A stretch of 64,000 bases of DNA from Callorhinchus milii (taxonomy: Eukaryota): contig NW_024704742.1 of NCBI RefSeq assembly GCF_018977255.1, positions 84,384,001 through 84,448,000 on the forward strand. The letters run 5' to 3'. Of this stretch, positions 12,201-64,000 are shown piece by piece (position 1 is the first letter of the stretch; every line of letters starts with the position of its first letter). Position numbers and translations under genes: made by a program. The notes under the pieces were generated by a model that saw nothing but the letters and a program-made list of their open reading frames with translations, was not told the DNA's origin and made no database searches.

Positions 12201-12519
12201 TGGTAGCCTGAATTTTGGCAGTAGCTTTTTTTTNCCTGAGCACAAGCAGCCTGGGTACTCCTGAAAGAACTAGTTTACTTTCATCTGTGGTAAGGAAACC
12301 CAAATGTGTTGATGTGAATATTGGTCATTTTGTGGCTTCACTCATTCATTAAAGGGCATAAAGTGTATAAGCACTACATATTAACGTGTCTGATGCTCAT
12401 GTCCAATTATCTTCAAGATGGAAGATATATTAAATAATAAAAGCTTTCATGAGCAGAGTACAATTGTAACCGTATGTAATGTAACCGCTAAAAGATAACT
12501 GTTCTTGTTTTGCTAACAG

Positions 12520-25195: not shown

Positions 25196-25664
25196 GTAAG
25201 TAACCACACTTACCTTCCAATATTCCTGCCTTCAAAAGTTAGTACTGTGCTGAGAAACTAAGGTTTCTTACACAGAATGCGTCTCTTTCAAGTAGTGGTT
25301 TGTGGCTATTAAACACTTCGTAATATTAACATTGCACAACTTCACACTATAATTTTAATGGGATGTCAAACTTTCTTTTAAATCTTATACTGAAAATTTA
25401 ATTGGAAAATCTAATTTGGAAGAAATATATCTTTTCAGATAAGGTTGCAATCAAAGCCTACCTCTCCTAAAGTACCTATGTGCCTGAACCAAAAATGTCA
25501 AGATAATTAAATACTGTATTATAAAGTGTTCTGTTTTTCTATGAAACTATATACCATGACACGTGAACACATTTTGCAGGTACCTTTAAATAAACACTTT
25601 AAAATTATTAGTTTGTAATGTTTGTGTCAACTTGGCTCAGTTGGTAGTACTCTTGCCACGTGAC

Positions 25665-26252
25665 TCCTACAAGCCTCTTATGTGGTGGCACTTTATCAAA
25701 CGCCTTTTGAAAATCCATACAAACTACATCAACTGGACTGCCTTCATTCACCCTCTCCATTACTTCATCAAAAAAAACTCTTGTCAGGTTTGTTTGGCAT
25801 GATTTGCCTTTAACAAATCCGTGTTGGTTGTCCTTTATTAACTCATATTTTTCTAAGTGAAAATTTATTTTTTCCCTGAATATAGTCTCTAGAAGTTTCT
25901 CCAAAACTGACGTTAGGCTGATTGGCCCATTGTTCCCGGTTTTATTCTTCTGCCCCTTTTTGTACAGGGGAGTAACATTTGCAACCCTTCTCTCAATAAT
26001 TTAGGATACATCCCGTCCTGACCGGGTGACTTATCTACCTTGAGCACCGACAACCTTTTTAGTACCTCCTCTCAGTTTATTCTTATCTTATCGAATTTCT
26101 CTACCCTCTCCTCTGATACCATGGAATTGACTGTATCCTCTTCTTTTGTGAAGACAGATACAAAATACTCATTCAGTACGTCAGACATGCCCTCTGCCTC
26201 CACAAGAAGATTTCCTCTTTGGTCCCTAGTTGGACCCACTCTACCTTTGAAT
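25665..26252 (-). mobile_element. CR1 LINE internal fragment (RT N-terminal part)
   Basis: ORFs with QHGFVKGKSC, DFQKAFDKVP and LNEYFVSVFTKE. Confidence 0.88.
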
Positions 26253-27539: not shown

Positions 27540-29350
27540 GCCAGAGTCATGTTCTTAAGCGATGCGGAGGAAAGAGTGTAGAAAGGTGGTGGTGGTAGGA
27601 GTAGATGATGAGGAGGGTTAGGGGGACAGAGAGGGCGTGGTGGTGGGTGACAAGGTGCAGGTGGATGAGGCTGCCTGGCGGATGTTCAGTATTTTAGTTG
27701 AAAAGAAGTCCATGACCTCCTCGCACTTGGCATTTGAGACGAAGATTGAGGAGGCCTGAGGGGGGGGGCACAGAAGAGGTGGTGGGAAAAAAGGATTTTA
27801 GGGTTGTGTTTAGCCTCCAAGATGATGTTGGAGTAGAAGGCCGTTTTTGCACATGTCAAAGAACGGTGGTAGCTGTGGAGATGCTCGAGCCACAGTTGGT
27901 GGTGAACTGTTAGGCCAGTTTTCCCCAATCTGCGCTCGAGCAGACGGGTTTGGGTTTTTAGGCGGTAGAGATGGTTGTTGTACCAGGGGGATCGGGTGGG
28001 TTTGGAGATGGTCCTGGATTTCAGGGGGACGAGGGAGTTGAAAGTGGAGGAGAGGCGATCATGTAGTAGCTGGACGGCTGCTTCAGGATCTCAGTGGTTG
28101 GAAGGCCAGGTGGATAGGATGTTTGAAGATGAGAGGGCCTTTTTTAGGGTCTCGGGGGTAGCCTTTTCCAAGGGCGGTAGAGGATGGTTGAAGGCTTGGT
28201 GGAGAAGAGAGGGATTGAGAGGAGAAGCAGATGAAAAAGTGATCCGAGATGGCCTTGTCCACTATGCTGAGGTCGGAAATGTCAAGGCCGTGGGTGATGA
28301 TGAGGTCAAGTGCATGACCACGGTTGTGGTTAGGTGAGTTTATATGGAGGGTGAGGTTTAGGGAGGAGAGGAGGGCAGTGAAATCGGTAGAAGTGGTGAA
28401 GGGGAAGTTTAGGTGGAGGTTGAAATCGCCCATTATGAGTAGGCACTCAGAGCAGAGGGACAGGGAAGAGAGGAGAGTAGAAATGTCTGTGTGGAAGGAG
28501 CTGGGGGGCGGTAAACAAGGAGAATTTTCAAAGGGAGAGAGGGGTGGAAAAGGGTGAGGTACTCGAAGGAGGGGAAAGCAGTCAGAGGAGTAGGGGGTGA
28601 GACCAAGGGAGGCTTTGGAAATGAAGGCCACCCCGCCACCAAGTTGGTTTGGACGGGGGGTGTGGTGGAAGGTGTAACCTGGAGGGGAGGCTTCCACTAG
28701 GGGGACGGGGTCATTGGGGGAGAGCCAGGTTTCGGTGAGCCCAAGAATGTCGAGGTGCTCATCCAGAATGAGGTCGTGGATGGTGAGGGCTTTATTTGAG
28801 AGGGAACGGACATCTTGGAGGGAAATGCGGGGGGTTTGCTGGACCGGGGGGAGGGAGGAGAGAGTGATGTGGAGAGGATTTTGGGTTGTATAGGAGAGAT
28901 GGTTGTGGAGAGTGGTGTGAGTGGAGAGTTGGGGAGGGTGTGTATGAGGGAAGGGGGAGTTGGGTTTGTGTTAAGGAGGCGGTTTGTGCGGAGGGAGTGA
29001 ATGATGGGACACGTGGGGTTGTTGCTCTGGGACAGCCAGTGCTGGGAGCCACGATTGGCCCAGCGGAGGATGCCCAGGCTGGAGCAGAGGGAAGTGGTGA
29101 TGGGGTCGAGGACAGAGAGAAGGAGGGGAGGGCGGTGGGAGAGAAGAACAGAGGGGGAGTAGCTGATAGAGGGGGGCGGGAAGAGAGACATTTAGGGGAG
29201 TGGGAGGACACACATTTAGGGGGAGGGTCGGGGCAGCAGCCAAAATGCGCACTCAGAGACCAGGAGCAAGCGATCAGCAAGACGGCATCAGCCCACGCAC
29301 GGGCTTTGCCTGCCAGTTCATGGCTGAGTGGCAGTGGCTGCCAGGCCATT
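27540..29350 (-). mobile_element. L2-clade LINE 5'/APE-endonuclease portion, degenerate
   Basis: ORF 28083-28697 has APE motifs PGYTFHHTPR...GGGVAFI, MGDFNLH, GHALDLII, SDHF; downstream IILEAKHNPK matches the L2 at 716-2775. Confidence 0.85.
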
Positions 29351-30759: not shown

Positions 30760-33700
30760 TATCATAGAATCATAGAATTTTACAGCACAGAAGGAGGCCA
30801 TTCGGCCCATCGTGTCTGTGCCGGCTCTTTGAAAAGAGCTTTCCAATTCAATCCACTCCCCTGTTTTCTCCCCATAGCCCTGTAAACTTGTCCTCCCCCT
30901 CGCCACATAATTATGCATTCCAGATCCGAACAACTCGCTGTGTGAAAAAATTTCTCCTCACCTCCCCTCTGTTTCTTTTAACAACTATTTTAAATTAGTG
31001 TCCTCGAGTTACTGACCCACGCGCCAGTGGAAATAATTTCTCCTGTTCACCCTCTCGAATCTCCCCCATAATCTTGAAAGCTTTTATTAAAACTCCTCTT
31101 AACCTTCTCTGCTCCAAGGAGAATAATCCTACCTTCTCGAGCCTCTCCTCATAACTGAAGTCCCTCATTCCTGGTACCATCCTGGCAAATCTCCTTTGCA
31201 CCCTCCAATGCCTTGACATCCTTCCTGAAGTGTAGTGCCCCAGAACTGAACACAGTCTCTCGCTGAGGTGTAACCAGTGTTTTATAAAGGTTCATCATAA
31301 CTTTCTGACTTTTGTATTCTATGCCCTATTTATATAGCCTAGTATCCCTTTTTTTAACCAGCTTTATCTAACTGTCCTGCCACCTTCAAAGATTTACTTA
31401 TATGACCCCCAGGTCTCTCTGTTCCTTCACCCCTTTAAAGATTGTACCATCGGCGTATATCGCCTCTCCTCATTCTTCCTCCCAAAATGCATCACTTCAC
31501 ATTTCTCCACATTAAACTTCATCTCCACGTGTCGGCCCATTTCCCAGTCTGTCTGTGTCCTCGTGCAGTCTGTGACTATACTCTTCACTGTTTACTACTT
31601 TTCCTCGCTTAGCGTCACCTGCAAACTTGGAAATTGTACTCCCTATACTCAAGTCCAGGTCATTTATACAGATCAAAAACAACAGTACTGACCCCTGGGG
31701 GACACCACTGCACACTTCCTTCCAGTCAGAAAAACAACCATTCACCCCCACTCACTGCTTTCTGTCCCCCAGTCAGTTCTGTATCTATGCTGCCACTGTC
31801 CCTTAAATACCGATGGCTTCTATTTTGCTTACAAGTTTCTTATGTGGCACTTTTTCAAACGCCTTTTGAAAATCCATATAAACTACATCAACTGCACTGC
31901 CTTCATCCACCCTCTCCATTACCTAATCAAAAAATTATTTTATCAGGTTTGTTAGAGATGATTTGCCTTTAACAAATCTGTGTTGGCTGTCCTTTATTAA
32001 CCCATATTTTTCTAAATGAAAATTTATTTTGTCCCGGATTATGGTCACTGGAAGTTTCTCCACTACTGACGTTAGGCTGACAGGCCTGTAGTTCCCGGGT
32101 TTATCCTTCTGCCCCTTTTTGTACAGTGGAGTAATATTTGCAAACTTCCAGTCCTCTGGCACCACCTCAATGTCCAAGGAGGATTGAAAGATTGTTGCCA
32201 CAGCCCTCCATTATTTCCACCCTTACTTATCTCAGTAACCTAGGATGCATCCCATCCTGACCGGGTGACTTATCTACCTTTTTAGTACTTCCTCTCAGTT
32301 TATTCTTATCCTATCCAATTTCTCTAACCTCTCCTCCGATACTGTGACATTGGGTGCATCCTATTCTTTTCTGAAGACAGATGCAAAGTACTCATTCAAT
32401 ACATCAGCCATTCCCTCTGCCTCCGCAAGAGGATTTTCTCTTTGGTCCCTAATTGGACCCACCCTACCTTTGATTAATCGTTTATTCTGTATATCCTTAT
32501 AAAATACCTTAGGCTTCCCTTTTATGTTACCCGCTAATCTTTTTTCATACAATCTCTTTGCCCCTCTTATTTCCTTTTTTGGTTCTCCTCTGTACTTTCT
32601 ATATTCTATTTGATTATCTTCTGTATTTTGGACCTGACATTTATCATAAGCCTCACTTTTCTGTTTTATCTTAATCCCAATTTCCTTATTCATCCAGGGA
32701 GGTTTGGATGCCCTACCTTTCCCTGTTCTGTCCCCGAACTAACTCCTCCTTGAAGGCTTCCCATTGCTCGTTAGCTGTTTTACCTGCCAATCTTTCTTTC
32801 CAATCCACCTTGGCTGGGTCACATTTTAACTCACTGAAATTAGCCCTCTTCCAGTTGGGTATCTTCACCTTTGATTTCTCCTTGTCCCTTTCCATAAGTA
32901 CTCTAAACCTAATGATGTGATCACTGTTGTCCAGATGCTCTCCTACTGAAACCTACTCCACTTGCCCCACTTCATTCCCCAGAATTAGATCCAGCGCTGC
33001 TTCCTTCCTCATTGGACTGGAAACATACTGATCCAGAAAGTTATCCTGCACACATTTCATGAATCCTTCCCCTCCTTGCCCTTTACACTGTTATTTTGCT
33101 ATGTTAAGATAATTGAAGTCCCCCATTATCACTACTCTATTGGTTTTGCATCTTTCTGAAATCTGCTTGCAGATTTGCTTGTTTATCTCCTTCCCACTAT
33201 TTGGTGGTCTATAGTATACACCTAACAGAGTAACAGCTCCTTTTCTGCTTGTTAATTCTAACCAAATTGAATCTGTTTTTGGACCCTCTCGCACATCGTC
33301 CCATTCCAGGGCCGTAACCGTGTCTTTAATTAATATTGCCACCCCCGCCTCCTTTTTTTCCTTCCCTATCCCTCCTGAATACATTGTAGCCAGGAATATT
33401 CAGCTCCCATTCCTGCCTTTGCTTGAGCTAGGTCTCCGTTATTGCCACTACATCATAACCCCATGTGGCAATTTGAGCCTGTAGCTCACTAATCTTATTC
33501 GTCACACTCCGTGCATTTACGCACATGCATTCCAAGACTGACTTAGTCTGTTCTGTATTTCTCCCCCGTCTAACCCCTCCTTTTTCTGGATTACTCCTTA
33601 TTACATAACATAACATAATACGTAGGAGCAGGAGTAGGCCATTTGGCCCTTCGAGCCTGCCCTGCCATTCAATTATGGCTGATCTTCTAATCTAACTCCA

Positions 33701-34524: not shown

Positions 34525-35292
<768 letters not shown>

Positions 35293-51247: not shown

Positions 51248-51525
51248 TTTATTTAGTATTACCTCCAGTTGTCTCTCGTGACCATATATACTGTTTACTT
51301 CAGCAACAATTGCTCAGCTCTCCAAGCCAAATCTCTGCTGAGCCTGTTTCCATCCTCCTGGTGTCCCTCAGTCTGGCAGATGTACTCGCTGTAATCATTC
51401 AGAATTAGCTGCCGCACTCCCATCACCTGCTATACTGAGAGCAGCTCATGTTTCTGGGTCCTGTAGTTCTTGAGCATCTCCCCAAACTCCTTTGTGTTCT
51501 TTGTCAGCTGAGGTCTAGGAGAGAT
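51248..51525 (-). pseudogene. Disabled terminal exon of an insulin/relaxin-like paralog (copy C)
   Basis: Acceptor tttgttccag|AT and start DLS*TSADKEH are homologous to copy B (DHSQTLADKDH) and copy A (DPFLPSADKEY). Contains stops and frameshifts; shifted frames give RLSR-DL and LSNCC*SKQ. The adjacent intron matches copy A's intron. Confidence 0.8.
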
Positions 51526-51716
51526 CTGGAACAAAATTAGCATTCCGTCAAAACTAATCAGTTAAACACCAGTATTATCAGTATTATTGTGAGTTGTGCC
51601 TTGAGCCCCAACAGCTTGCTTCTGATTATTCAGTGTGATACTGCAGGGCTGAACCCTCTCAAACATCATGCTTACTGTGCTCCCCATCTCTTCAGATATC
51701 ATACACAGAGGGCAGA

Positions 51717-53560: not shown

Positions 53561-53614
53561 TGGATCAGAAACCACCTATTGGGGATATCCAGCAACCACC
53601 AATGTAGATCTACA

Positions 53615-54200
53615 ATCATATCTGACCACTGTATATCTGTAGTGATAACTGACCCACTGTATATCTGTAGTGATAACTGACCCACTGTATATCTGTAGTG
53701 ATAACTGACCCAGTCTATATCTGTAGTGGTATCTGACCCACTGAATATCTATAGTGGTATCTGACCCACTGTATAATTGAGGTGACATCTGACCACTGTA
53801 TATTATAATAATCCTTGCATCTGATATAGCGCCTTATTACATCGTTGAGACAGAATATATTGTAAAGTGGATTGATTGTGTATTCTGTGGGCGAAACACG
53901 GCAGCCGATTTAGCACAGCGGTGTCTCAAACACAGTCGTGGATTGAGTGAGCAATTTTTTATGAGGAATTATTACCCCCAGAAAACGATTTGCCAATCCC
54001 AATCAACTAACAAGCTGGTTCCTATTTACTGCTGGGAAAACAGAGGTGTATTGCAGTGATATCTGACCACTGTATATCCTCAGTGATATCTGGTCCAGAT
54101 TAAGTGTAGTGACGTCATGCAGCTGTTTATCCAGTGATATCAGACTGCTTTAGAAGTGTAATGATATCAAATACTGTCTAACCACAGTGATATCAAACAT
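53615..54200 (+). repeat. 28-bp minisatellite (CTGACCCACTGTATATCTGTAGTGATAA)n interrupted by a SINE (~53805-54050, -)
   Basis: About 6-7 clear units at 53615-53803; degenerate units resume after the SINE. Confidence 0.85.
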
Positions 54201-56853: not shown

Positions 56854-57877
56854 AGGTCTCCCTTACAGAATTCACACATATATTTTATTTCTTTGCTACA
56901 GAAATAAATGTTAGACAGTATTCCTTGATGTACGTAGGTAAAAGCTGCACTAGTGATCATAAGTGATCATTTTGTGCCATACTTCAATTGTTTTGGCCTT
57001 CTTTTCAGGTTTTGCTTTCTCTTTACTGATTTGCCAACCTTTGGCAATAATCTATTTCTAATTATTCTATCGTAGCCCTTCAGAATCTTAAAAGCTTCCA
57101 TTAGGAAACCCATTAATCTTCTCAGCTTTAGTAAGGAGTCCTGTAGCATATTGGTGAGAGCACTCCCCACCCAAGCAAGAGGATCTGGGTTTGATTCCCA
57201 GGCAGGGTGAAACATTAGGCAAGTTTCCTTACTCCACGTGCCTCTGTTTACCGAGCAGTAAATAGGAACCCAGTGCTCTATTTTTAGTTTGTGCATGACC
57301 CCATTGACAGCCTTCTCTGCTGGAAATGTGAAAATGGGGAGGAGCTCAGGCCTATAGATAAATAATAATCCTTGCATTTAATATAATGCCTTATCACGTC
57401 GTTGAGACGTCTTAAAGCGCTTCATGGAATATACTGCAAAGTGGATTTACTGTATTTTGTGGGCAAAATCGGGTGCTAAGAGAAATTGATGCATTACCAG
57501 CCTGGTGCTGTCAGAAGCTCTCAGGTGTTACACTGAGAGTGTTACAGAAATCATTCGGAGGAATATGTCAATGAGTAAAATACATTCTTTCCACAAACCA
57601 CTTTGATAAGAAATGAAAAAAACTCTGAAATGCTACAATCATTTAATTGTCATTTCATTCCTTCAGCCTAGTGGCCTTGACAATAACCATATTAAAAATT
57701 ACAGAAAACTATATTTGGGATATTCCACATCTCAAGTCATATGGTTTTCAAGTTGTAAGAACATAAGAACATAAGAATTTGCTAGGCGAAAGAAGACCAA
57801 CGTCCATCCTGTTCGCCTTCCATCATCCTGGCAGTCGAGTGCACATGTCCATGTTAAGAGTGAGAACAGATGTACGG

Positions 57878-58086
57878 TCAACCTGGGCAGAGTGTTTTGA
57901 GATCGGTTATGGTGCAGCCTCTAGCACAGCAGTCTATGGCCAGTCTGCCAATTGCACAGAATGTTTCAATTGACATTCGTTGCTGCAGTGCTTCACCCCG
58001 CCTACATTTCATAACCATCCTCCTGAGCTCCCTCACGTTGGCTGTCTCCTCGGGGTGGTCTTTGTCAGCTAAGGTCTGGGAGTGAT
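57878..58086 (-). CDS. Insulin/relaxin-superfamily gene copy B, exon 2 (C-peptide + A-chain)
   Basis: ttccattccag|AT (phase 1); HSQTLADKDHPEETANVRELRRMVMKCRRGEALQQRMSIETFCAIGRLAIDCCARGCTITDLKTLCPG*; canonical CC-x3-C-x8-C; candidate ATTAAA at 57642-57647. Confidence 0.9.
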
Positions 58087-58769
58087 CTGGAATGGAACAT
58101 AACACTCCTGTCACAAAGCGCTTTACGGATTATATTATAGAGTGGATTGACTTTGTATTTTGTGGGCAAAACGGGGTAGCCAATTGCACACAGCAGAGTC
58201 CCACAAACAGCCATATATTGAGTGACCAAATTAATTTTTTGGGGGTTGGAAGGATTATTACCCCGAGAATGTGATCCGCCAATTGACCAGGTTCCTGCTT
58301 ACTGCTAGGTAAACAGAGTCGTGTTGAGTAAGAAAACCTACCTAAGGTTTCACCCTGCCCGAGAATGGAACCTGGGTCCTCTCACTTGCGAGGCGAGCGT
58401 GCTAACCACTATGCTATATGACTCCTTACTCCCCTCCATGTGCACAGGCACGTCTGAATCTTCTCATTACAAGTTAGTGAAAGCCACAAAAGACCCTGAC
58501 TTTTTAGATCTCCAAAAAATGCTAAAAACGAACCCCTGAAAAATGAAATGTTTATAAATCCTGAAAAACAGAATCTCTAATTATAATATACAAGAGTAGG
58601 AGAGGTCCCAGCACCAACCCATGAGGTATTCCAATTAATGTAATTCCCCTATTTTCACACAGTTTCCCTGTGACTACCCTCTGCTTCCTTACCTTTAATC
58701 AGTAACTAAGACACATCCATATCCTACTCTTGATACCCAGTAAAATCAGTTTGTAATGGAGTGCTACTC

Positions 58770-59250
58770 TGCCAAAGACTTTTTGGAAGAACAAAGCAGA
58801 CCTGGAGTCAATGCTGGAGGAGGCAAAGTAGATTTGTGTGTCATCCACATACATGTGGAATTTTACCCTGTGTCTGCGGATGAAATCATTAAGAGGGAGT
58901 ATATAGATGAGGAAAAGAAGAGGCCAAGGATGGGCCCTGGGGTACCCTACATGTGATGACCAGGCGGGGAGCGGGAGGAGAAACCATTTGCCGAGATAAA
59001 ATGGAGGCGATTGATTAAGTTGGACTCGAACTATGTGACTGCAATCCCACTAAGGTCAATGACGGAGAAGATGCAGTGGAGGAGGATGGTGTGGTCGACT
59101 GTGATGAACACAGCAGAGAAATCCAGGAGGACGAGGAGGCAGAGGGAGCCCTGGTCACAGATAGAGAGAACGTCATTTGTGACTTGGATAAGTGCTATGT
59201 CTGTGCTGGGGCAGGGTGAAAACCACACTGCAGGGGCTCAAGGAAGGAGA
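58770..59250 (-). mobile_element. L2 RT fragment inside the intron of copy B
   Basis: ORF 59031-59228 [26 protein letters not shown]. Confidence 0.85.
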
Positions 59251-59976
59251 GGTGATTTATGATTAATTTGTGATTCATCTCAACTGATTTATGACTGAGT
59301 AAAACATAACTGTGTTCTACGTCATTAAACTTAGTCCTCATACCTCTAACGTTTACCCATCTAAAGATATAAACTGGAGTTTGGATGCAGACTTGGGACA
59401 AGTTGTTCTCCCTATCTTGGCCTTGTACTCTGCAACAAACTCCAAATGTTATTCTGACCCGTTTCTCCTTAAGGACATCTAACCAGAGAATTTCACACCA
59501 CTGCTATTTTGAGATGCTGCCGGGAAGAACAATAACAAAACAAAATTACATTTGTAAAGCGCCTTTCACGTCGGGAGGATGTCCCAAGGCGCTGAACCTT
59601 CGAGGTTTTCCTTACATAAACAGAACCCTCTCCACCTTTTCTATCCACCATATCATTCCTGAATTTGTGTACCCTGGTAATTGATACTTACTTCCATCAC
59701 CCTGGTTTACATTTCTGTGATTTTTACCACAGTAATCACTGGTTGTTGTCCGTGCTCTCATTCCATTGTTTTATTTCAAGCGCTTCTGGCATTATGTACT
59801 CGAAAGAGAGAGAAAAATAATGTGGTCACTCAACCATGATTGTGTGGGATACTGCTATAACCAATTGGCTGCCATATTTCACCCACAAAATATACAGTAT
59901 ATCCTGTGAAGCACTACTCACTCGGGCAACAGCGTTAAAGAAACAATAGTTAATGGAAGTGATTTTAAATCCTTAC

Positions 59977-60118
59977 CAACATAATGGCGTCTTTTGAAAG
60001 AGTCTGGACAAGCATCAGTCACTGCCTTGTAGAACGGTGGCCCACACAATAAATCCTGAGGCAGTACAGAGCCAGGCACGGAGGAAAGGAACAGCAAAAC
60101 ACACATCATACACTTCAT
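59977..60118 (-). CDS. Insulin/relaxin-superfamily gene copy B, exon 1 (signal peptide + B-chain)
   Basis: MKCMMCVLLFLSSVPGSVLP-QDLLCGPPFYKAVTDACPDSF-KRR-HYV then G|gtaagg. Hydrophobic leader, LCG...C with 11 residues between Cys, basic site, and a phase-1 donor in frame with exon 2 (116-aa precursor). Confidence 0.9.
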
Positions 60119-60270
60119 CTCAGCTCACAAGTGATCACTCTCAGAGACTGTCGAACCAGACCATACGCTTTAATGGTATCTTTCTTCACCTCAGATGACT
60201 CGATTTCAAGTCAAGTACCTCTTTCTTGCTCTCTCTCTCTTGCTCTCTCTCAATTTGCCTCCTTCCTTTC

Positions 60271-60278
60271 TTTTATAG
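60271..60278 (-). promoter_or_regulatory. Candidate TATA box of copy B
   Basis: CTATAAAA on the minus strand ~155 bp upstream of the ATG. Confidence 0.5.
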
Positions 60279-61419
60279 CTGGCGTGCTCTCTTATTCTAA
60301 CTGAGAATTTGAAATCACTTTTCACACCCCTTTCTCTGATGACCTCAGACATTTTCCAGCCCCTCATATCATATGTGATAACAGCTCCACAGCTACATTA
60401 ATCAGGATCCAACTTGAGAAGGAGAGTACACGATGACTGTGGCTAAAGAGGACAAATGGGCTATGTTATAAGGAAGTCTGTTATGAAAGAGCCTGTCTCA
60501 GGATGTTGGACACAGGCTTTCACTCTAGATGTGGGTTTGCTGCACCAAGTCAGATGTGGAAACTGGCCATGAGCTGAGTAATGTGTGATTCTGACAGAAA
60601 CCTCTGCCTCAGACATGTTCAATATCACAAGCAGAGCAGTTTTTTGTACAGACTACAGCAAAGAAACACGCCACTTGCCCAACCAGTCAATGTCAGTGTT
60701 TATACTCCACACAAAGCCCCATCTATCCTTACTTCCTACCATACCTTTCTATTCCCTTTCCCTCAATTGAAGGTCTAATTTCCTCTTGAATGTATCTACG
60801 CTATCTGATTCAACCACCGCTTCAGGCAGGGAGTTTCACAGTAAAACCCTCTGTGTGAAATAGTTCCTCCTAAATTGCTTTTTAGATCCTCTGGTCACTG
60901 TTTTATACTTGTGTCCCCTGAATATGGACTCCCCAACCAGTTGAAATAGCTTATTTATGCTAATCTTATCAAACCCTTTTATAATTTTAAACACGGTGGT
61001 GATGCTGATAGGATGGGAGATGTGAAGCAGGCTGGTATTTTCTGAATGGAAGGAGCGGCCGGGGCAGTAGGAGACAGAGGTAAGGTGTGGTGAGGTCTTT
61101 GAGAGATTTGAAATTGAGGACTAGGGGAGCCAGTGGAACCAGATGATGAGCTTGTGGAACTTGGTGTAGGAGAGGAAACGAGCTGCGTTGTTCTGGACCA
61201 TCAGTAGTTTGCGAAGGGAAGAGCTGAAGAATCGGGTAAGTGGAGCATTGGAATGATCACTCCACTCCAGTTACTACAAATCCCTTCACACCACAACACC
61301 AACTGTCTCCATACCTTCTCCTAAGCCCAGTCTTCTGCTCGCACCTTCCATTCGGGTAACTTAAGCCAGCTTTGTATACCCCGCTCCCCACTATCATGAA
61401 TACATCCTCATATGCAGTG

Positions 61420-62812: not shown

Positions 62813-63036
62813 TTAGGGTTTGCAGAAGGTATTCATATCATGTCTGCTACACCCAACTTTGCAACATTTATTGATAATTCCATAAGTGTTTGCCCTTCTT
62901 TCTGCGGTCTGGTACACTGTAGCTCCAAACGGCTGTATTGGTGCATTGTATTTCCCATTCTCAAGCCTCCACTCAAACGCCTTCATGTTATCTGTTTCCT
63001 CGGAGTATTCTTTGTCAGCTGATGGCAAGAAGGGAT
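62813..63036 (-). CDS. Insulin/relaxin-superfamily gene copy A, exon 2 (C-peptide + A-chain); exon 1 lies beyond the window
   Basis: tctcttccag|AT (phase 1); PFLPSADKEY...TAE-RR-ANTYGIINKCCKVGCSRHDMNTFCKP*; dibasic site and CC-x3-C-x8-C; AATAAA at 62559-62564. Confidence 0.92.
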
Positions 63037-63320: not shown

Positions 63321-64000
63321 CAGAGCCTACTTTCAGTGAGCACTGCAGACGATCCAGACAGGCACTTTGAACATCGTATTCAGAGATCCTAACAGGTCAG
63401 AACGACAGCAATTGGCCAGAGTCGAGTTAATAGATACAACACTCAACTGGTAAGAAGACCAGGGGAAGCCTGGCTGAAGGAATGGAGACAGAAACTGCTT
63501 AAAGCACCAGGCACTGGATCAGCCCTTTAATTCTATCCTTATTTTAAAGTGGAGACAGTACAGTAAATGGGAACCAGTTTATCTACTCTTACACCTGGCT
63601 CAGGGAACTACCTTTATTCACTGTTTGTCTGCTCCTCTTACAATTTTCTTCTTAGATTTTTCTATTCTATTCACAGTTTGAATATATACTATCTGGTCTG
63701 AAGTTATAAACACTGCTCTGTTATCTGTTTGGCATTGTTAAAAATCAATTACATTTCACTTGATACACCTACTGCCATCAACCTGAATGTCAAATGAGCT
63801 AACGAGATAACTTCTGAGACAGAATAGAGCTGGTAAAAGAGCTTCAGCCCGAGACTCACAAAACACTTTAGGAATGAATCTTTCACAAGCGATTTGCTAG
63901 CATATTTCAGAATTGTCAACCCTTTTCTTCTTCTCAGATCACAAATGAATAGTCTCAGTGCCTCTGACTTAGAGTTCCCCTGACAGCTATTTCAACGTTT

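Follow-up and report, generated by a model that had tools for sequence, protein, structure and literature searches.

The 64,000-nt window that we analysed, the whole stretch C1:84,384,001-84,448,000 in an assembly of 991.5 Mb, contains an intact insulin/relaxin-superfamily gene in two exons, hereafter copy B, whose B chain has lost the receptor cassette of relaxin. Copy B lies on the minus strand within a cluster of about 24 kb beside RIC1, where relaxin-like copies are found both intact (at least four: A, B, C and E) and decayed (at least four: F, D, G and H). The account that we favour, at somewhat better than an even chance, is that copy B is a live, orphan and lineage-specific relaxin paralogue whose product would be secreted and processed and would not be canonically RXFP-active.

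All features of copy B given below are read on the minus strand. The coding part of exon 1 spans 59977..60118 and is translated as MKCMMCVLLFLSSVPGSVLPQDLLCGPPFYKAVTDACPDSFKRRHYV with one extra base; it encodes a signal peptide (amino acids 1-16 or 1-20), the B chain up to F41, KRR42-44, the residues HYV and the first base of the codon for D48. The coding part of exon 2 (57878..58086) is translated as HSQTLADKDHPEETANVRELRRMVMKCRRGEALQQRMSIETFCAIGRLAIDCCARGCTITDLKTLCPG and then stops. It contains a C-peptide-like region, the dibasic pairs RR69-70 and RR76-77, the extra cysteines C75 and C91, the A-chain core and a TGA codon at 57878-57880. Between the exons lies a phase-1 gt...ag intron (58087..59976) made up largely of SINE and LINE fragments, with a canonical donor (TTG/gtaagg) and a canonical acceptor (ttccattccag/AT). 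The joined exons form a 116-aa ORF in which D48 is the split codon. The predicted N-terminus looks like a signal peptide, in which MK, a hydrophobic stretch and VPG come one after another; its identity to the signals of the paralogues is 55-75%. Upstream of it, a TATAAAA box was read directly at 60271..60277, 153 nt 5' of the ATG, and the proximal 5'UTR (60119..60158) is common to the paralogues and the canonical relaxin gene. The presumed 5'UTR also carries a short, 7-codon uORF at 60141..60164 (ATG, six codons and TGA), for which no counterpart was found in the aligned 5'UTR of paralogue E. A candidate ATTAAA polyadenylation signal is located at 57642..57647, about 230 nt 3' of the stop codon. 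An earlier note on this DNA, centred on 59977-60118, had described a 116-aa relaxin-like precursor with intact splice sites, KRR site and TATA box. Re-reading of the ORF, the phase-1 intron and the gt/ag sites bore out this description, and each of the listed features was found in the sequence.

Several lines of evidence place copy B in the insulin/relaxin family. The precursor carries the six framework cysteines, two in the B chain (C25 and C37, C-x11-C) and four in the A-chain core L96-G116 (57881..57943), where C100, C101, C105 and C114 form the pattern CC-x3-C-x8-C. A search of the 64-kb window in all six frames gave only two occurrences of this pattern, each in a relaxin-like gene. The signal-B-C-A order, the two coding exons and the phase-1 intron in the C region are the same as in copies A, C and E and in the canonical relaxin gene of the species (R). 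The best sequence matches to the A-chain core were the A chains of INSL3 and INSL5 in the PDB (2h8b, E=0.025, and 2k1v, E=0.23). The match to INSL3, with 11 of 19 aligned residues identical, is limited to the A chain, and the B chain of copy B presumably lacks the receptor-contact residues of both INSL3 and INSL5. In the ESM Atlas, the first match of exon 2 was an insulin-family cluster (0.93, 219 shared features), and exon 1 aligned with R at E=1e-6 in a local tblastn search of 114 kb. Exon 1 or the B chain returned nothing at E<=10 against PDB sequences. The exons were scanned separately against Pfam: exon 2 scored 11.9 bits with PF00049 (E=0.49, cut-off 23), exon 1 scanned alone had no Pfam match, and exon 2 of copy A scored 21.7 bits with the same family.

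The B chain is where copy B departs from relaxin. In PMC551602, RxxxRxxI/V is given as the B-chain motif specific to relaxin that marks a functional relaxin and RXFP1 (LGR7) agonist. As first delimited, the B chain of copy B runs from Q21 to F41 (59996..60058), with 11 residues between C25 and C37. The earlier note had claimed that this chain keeps a structural scaffold but has neither the cassette of RXFP1 ligands nor an RW/W terminus, and our translation agrees with it on both counts. The scaffold reads L24-C25-G26-x-x-F29-x-x-A32-V33-x3-C37; P27 and K31 occupy both Arg positions of the cassette; C37 is followed by P38, giving CP rather than CG; and the chain ends in S40-F41 before K42-R43-R44. 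Beyond what the earlier note had listed, T34 stands at the I/V position, which leaves none of the three cassette positions (P27, K31, T34) as in a functional relaxin. Agonists of RXFP3/4 of the relaxin-3/INSL5 type carry a B-chain C-terminal Arg-Trp after CG(G)S. This Arg-Trp is present in the B chains of R and of the canonical paralogue on C5; copy B instead has C37-P-D-S-F and then KRR, a tail of only four residues after C37. Canonical relaxin-family B chains are basic, and the net charge of the copy B chain is -2. Since all residues of the RXFP1/2-contacting motif RxxxRxxI/V and of the RXFP3/4-activating C-terminal R-W are replaced, the copy B peptide most likely does not signal canonically through the relaxin receptors. 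Binding to the insulin and IGF receptors depends on a C-terminal strand of the B chain and on a Tyr before the last A-chain Cys; copy B appears to have neither, and this possibility was set aside.

The likely processing of the precursor can be read from its basic residues and cysteines. KRR42-44 (59987..59995) follows the B chain and is predicted to be a prohormone-convertase site. Towards the A chain, the closest dibasic pairs, RR69-70 and RR76-77, stand 29 and 22 residues in front of CC, and the translation of the copy B precursor contains no dibasic site adjoining the A chain; R has RRKR and copy A has RR 10-12 residues before CC. The earlier note had started the B chain at Q21, with the signal cut after P20. 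We revised this boundary, because the paralogue position (...SVLS/Q) has Pro at -1 in copy B and is thereby disfavoured by the -3/-1 rule; the signal peptide is probably cut after G16. In the proposed pathway, the 116-aa precursor would enter the secretory pathway, lose its signal peptide, likely after G16, and be cleaved by convertases at KRR42-44 and at RR69-70 and/or RR76-77, and three canonical disulfides would then yield an insulin-fold peptide. Mature copy B would have a short acidic B chain of 21-25 residues and an unusually long A chain of up to 39 aa. C91 would be left unpaired after a cut at RR76-77, and a fourth disulfide, C75-C91, could form if RR76-77 stayed uncut. Such a peptide would neither engage RXFP1/2 nor activate RXFP3/4 in the known way. 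The two additional cysteines were considered as a sign of selection and dropped, because a stretch of 50 random codons would by chance include about 1.6 Cys. Pro27-Pro28 after CG and Pro38 in place of Gly after C37 lie at structurally sensitive places, and folding may therefore be impaired. A complex prediction for the exon-1 and exon-2 products of copy B gave a score of 0.05 and a mark of 0.34.

We then placed copy B among its neighbours, using window coordinates continued past 64000 into the fetched flanks. The large RIC1 exon (34525-35292, plus strand; Pfam RIC1, E=9.5e-48, along with the second beta-propeller) lies upstream of the cluster and is the sole RIC1 match in the genome. Next comes relic F, an exon 2 on the minus strand (51440..51526) that has no A chain and runs into an in-frame TAG three codons past the acceptor. 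The segment 51713-52118 beside it is 89% identical over 408 nt to the copy A intron (63381-63774), which indicates that relic F is a recent duplicate and is already dead. Copy A is intact and also lies on the minus strand, with exon 2 at 62813..63036 and exon 1 beyond the window end (flank L009:511-676). Five further copies follow in the flanks. Copy C is intact on the plus strand at about 66.2-67.5 kb (L009:2181-3461). The exons of copy D, on the plus strand (L009:4431-6330), lie at about 68.4 kb (exon 1) and about 70.2 kb (exon 2), and the frames of exon 2 are apparently disrupted. Copy G is a signal-peptide-like relic on the minus strand at about 71.0-71.1 kb (L009:7032-7121). Copy E is intact on the plus strand at about 74.1-75.4 kb (L010:149-1440), and copy H is a C-like A-chain fragment with a stop on the plus strand at about 75.6 kb (L010:1583-1642). 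The next recognisable gene on the downstream side is a tyrosinase-domain exon (PF00264, E=3e-6; plus strand, L013:8245-9003), about 38 kb beyond the window end. The intact ORFs of A, B, C and E are 129, 116, 127 and 113 aa long, and all have a phase-1 intron with gt/ag sites. RxxxRxxI/V is absent from all four, and none keeps the Gly after the second B-chain Cys. Copy C has 12 rather than 11 residues between the B-chain cysteines and no dibasic site before the A chain. Our literature search found no description of this relaxin-like cluster in the sources it covered, which excluded subscription-journal papers, and the supplement of PMC11122137 holds no elephant-shark sequence. Between relic F and copy B, at 53600-53830, the minus reading shows units of about 31 nt (cagatatacagtgggtcagttatcacta...) repeated in tandem.

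The canonical relaxin gene R is located at C1:77.93 Mb (L014:3653-7435), with a B chain reading ...KLCGRDFIRAIIYTCGGSRWRR; the UniRef entry V9LCU5_CALMI ('Relaxin 3', Callorhinchus milii) matches it at 99% identity. R lies 6.5 Mb from the cluster on the same chromosome, and a JAK-type gene is found 38 kb from it; directly 5' of the ATG of R stands a long (ACC/CAC)n-like repeat. C5 carries a second canonical relaxin-3-like gene, with another JAK gene at a distance of 220 kb. Copy B and R have in common two exons, a phase-1 intron, the six-Cys framework, the signal peptide, the proximal 5'UTR and an exon-2 start of the form SQT.ADKD, which E has as well. They differ in that the 172-aa precursor of R alone contains the complete R-D-F-I-R-A-I-I cassette, CGGSRW with RR behind it, and RRKR immediately in front of a short A chain, whereas copy B is 116 aa long and has P27/K31/T34, CPDSF and two extra cysteines. 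Over 20 codons, the signal peptide of copy B shares 75% of its amino acids with R and 70% with E. Of the 20 nt that immediately precede the ATG, copy B has 18 in common with E, 16 with R and 13 with C. With E, similarity further extends over the promoter, the 5'UTR and the beginning of exon 1 (60056-60408): the alignment covers 378 nt, about 290 nt of them promoter, and is 70% identical. Of the mature parts, the A chain is conserved best, with 47% identity to R. An EET(D) segment is common to the cluster members and absent in R. The conservation of the UTR suggests that the cluster copies are duplicates of the relaxin gene and not ancient 2R paralogues. On these alignments, copy B is a product of tandem duplication from the canonical relaxin gene of the species and a member of the birth-and-death cluster beside RIC1. 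On human 9p24, JAK2 stands next to the RLN, INSL4 and INSL6 genes and RIC1, and by that gene order the relaxin (RLN) paralogon would include the cluster.

We further explored whether copy B bears signs of constraint or of decay. It has kept its start codon, splice sites, TATA box, six framework cysteines, Gly26 and the residues L24, F29, A32, V33 and A36, a pattern in which core residues are kept and receptor-contact surface positions are replaced. All length differences between copy B and its paralogues are in frame. In the signal region, dS between copy B and the cluster members is 0.48-0.57, measured over 20 codons only. Neutral evolution was simulated from the copy B CDS by substitutions only, at d=0.25 per site, about half of the signal-region dS, in 20,000 trials. 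An intact ORF survived in 3.0% of the trials, all six cysteines in 2.9% and both in 0.125%; indels were ignored, so the simulation is conservative. Whole-gene dN/dS between copy B and the paralogues is 0.55-0.77, a range that does not demonstrate constraint because dS is saturated and the regions compared are tiny (19-33 codons). A dN above dS in the B chain was not taken as proof of positive selection, given the uncertain alignment there, the saturation of dS and the chance that gene conversion has lowered dS in the signal region. The conservation of the 5' region could likewise reflect gene conversion rather than selection. The copy B intron has no unique similarity to the intron of any paralogue, though the promoter, 5'UTR and signal region align. 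The earlier note had argued from the intact features that the gene is live. The intact features, the kept core and the simulation argue for past constraint on copy B, and to this extent, for the past only, the claim stands.

Transcript and protein collections were searched for products of the cluster. No RNA run was among those listed as containing window sequence; the four that do contain it appear to be genomic and belong to one study, and putative RNA runs contained 0.00-0.05 of the words. In the contig sets X5-X8, likewise putative RNA, there was no cover over 60042-60275, a span that takes in the copy B 5'UTR and 77 nt at the start of exon 1, and the depth elsewhere came mainly from SINE/LINE repeats. 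One 189-nt X6 contig matches copy A at 62882-63036 without a mismatch and stops exactly at the copy A acceptor (63036) with 34 nt left over, which is consistent with a spliced copy A transcript. The copy B protein is absent from a database of 5.8 billion proteins that holds the canonical relaxin R of the species, and none of A, B, C and E is present in this database. Exon 2 of copy B, searched against the same 5.8 billion proteins in the near length range, gave no candidate; an exon-1 alignment of the four paralogues, run against longer proteins, gave none at E<=1 among 1721 candidates; and an exon-2 profile run against 1.84 billion representatives found no orthologue. The sole match of that profile (P0004, E=2e-4) was discarded as an unrelated 264-aa protein with four insulin-like repeats.

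Orphan members of the relaxin family offer the closest comparisons. The receptors of INSL4 and INSL6 are described as unknown in PMC12702675. Like copy B, these mammalian genes are lineage-specific, orphan duplicates of the relaxin locus in the JAK2-RIC1 neighbourhood. They differ from it in stemming from independent duplications in another lineage, while copy B has extra cysteines and no A-chain junction site. Orthology of copy B with INSL4 or INSL6 is unlikely, because copy B shares UTR sequence with its own species' relaxin. From the male Atlantic stingray, a glycosylated relaxin-like molecule was isolated as a protein (Bullesbach, Schwabe and Lacy 1997, as cited in PMC551602), and PMC551602 states that it was made in a male reproductive organ, that its B chain is without the relaxin-specific motif and that it is 'not a functional relaxin'. 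By that description, it resembles copy B in being a cartilaginous-fish relaxin-like peptide with a motif-less B chain and differs in being glycosylated, whereas the paralogue alignment shows no N-x-S/T sequon in copy B. By analogy, copy B is probably comparable in function to INSL4/INSL6 and to the motif-less stingray molecule.

Other explanations of copy B have to be weighed against a live orphan paralogue. The main one, to which we give a substantial chance that stays well short of even, is that copy B is a silent or dying duplicate, long constrained and now unexpressed or useless, in which no disabling mutation has yet occurred. The company it keeps speaks for this explanation, as at least four relics (F, D, G and H) lie within the same 24 kb; with about half of the cluster copies dead, copy B may be the next to go. 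Its protein is absent from the databases searched, the A-chain junction has no dibasic site, the extra cysteines, the PP and CP substitutions and the uORF are all present, and overall dN/dS against the paralogues is 0.55-0.77. Against this, the start codon, splice sites, TATA box, signal peptide, six cysteines and hydrophobic core are intact, no length difference from the paralogues breaks the reading frame, and the younger copy F is already broken, whereas intactness such as that of copy B is unlikely under prolonged neutrality according to the simulation. That the ORF is a chance or mis-modelled one, with two exons that do not belong to one gene, is very hard to credit: no transcript of copy B was seen and the Pfam score is below threshold, but exon structure, intron phase, splice sites, 5'UTR and signal peptide are common to four paralogues, as is the ADK..EET start of exon 2, and a cDNA-supported relaxin is among the four.

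For the action of the peptide, the earlier note had offered another receptor, antagonism or a non-endocrine role. The copy B peptide might still act on RXFP1-4 through non-canonical contacts, as agonist or antagonist, with K31 standing in for one Arg and the A chain contributing. At the second Arg position the change to K31 is conservative, and the A chain, with its 47% identity to R and its INSL3/INSL5-like matches, is the best conserved mature part. Set against these points are the cassette, none of whose three positions is kept exactly, the net charge of -2 where canonical B chains are basic, and the missing C-terminal R-W, with only four residues after C37; on balance we consider such an action improbable. 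A broader proposal, which is speculative and rather unlikely, though less so than action on RXFP1-4, regards the whole cluster as fast-diversifying, secreted, relaxin-derived peptides in which the signal and Cys framework are kept, the mature surface is hypervariable and the use is a non-RXFP one, copy B being a four-disulfide or free-thiol peptide with its own non-RXFP target. Were this proposal true, a role in reproductive-tract secretion, like that of the stingray molecule, would be possible, and orphan insulin-like hormones would have had an independent origin in cartilaginous fish.

The loss of the motif is real, takes place within a larger birth-and-death cluster and has clear precedents. 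If copy B is live, as we favour, the relaxin locus would repeatedly spawn orphans that keep the insulin fold and drop the receptor cassette, with independent births in the chimaera and in mammals (INSL4/INSL6), and a slowly evolving vertebrate would become available for seeking the targets of orphan peptides. If it is silent, copy B would be an ordinary decaying duplicate. The cluster itself provides a natural series of hormone-gene birth and death, which runs from the canonical parent through the four intact, divergent copies to at least four relics.

Elsewhere in the window, minus-strand fragments of LINE reverse transcriptase/endonuclease at 1846-2913, 25611-26000, 28086-28970 and 33094-33399 explain GC-rich, skewed segments, and a single N stands at position 12234.
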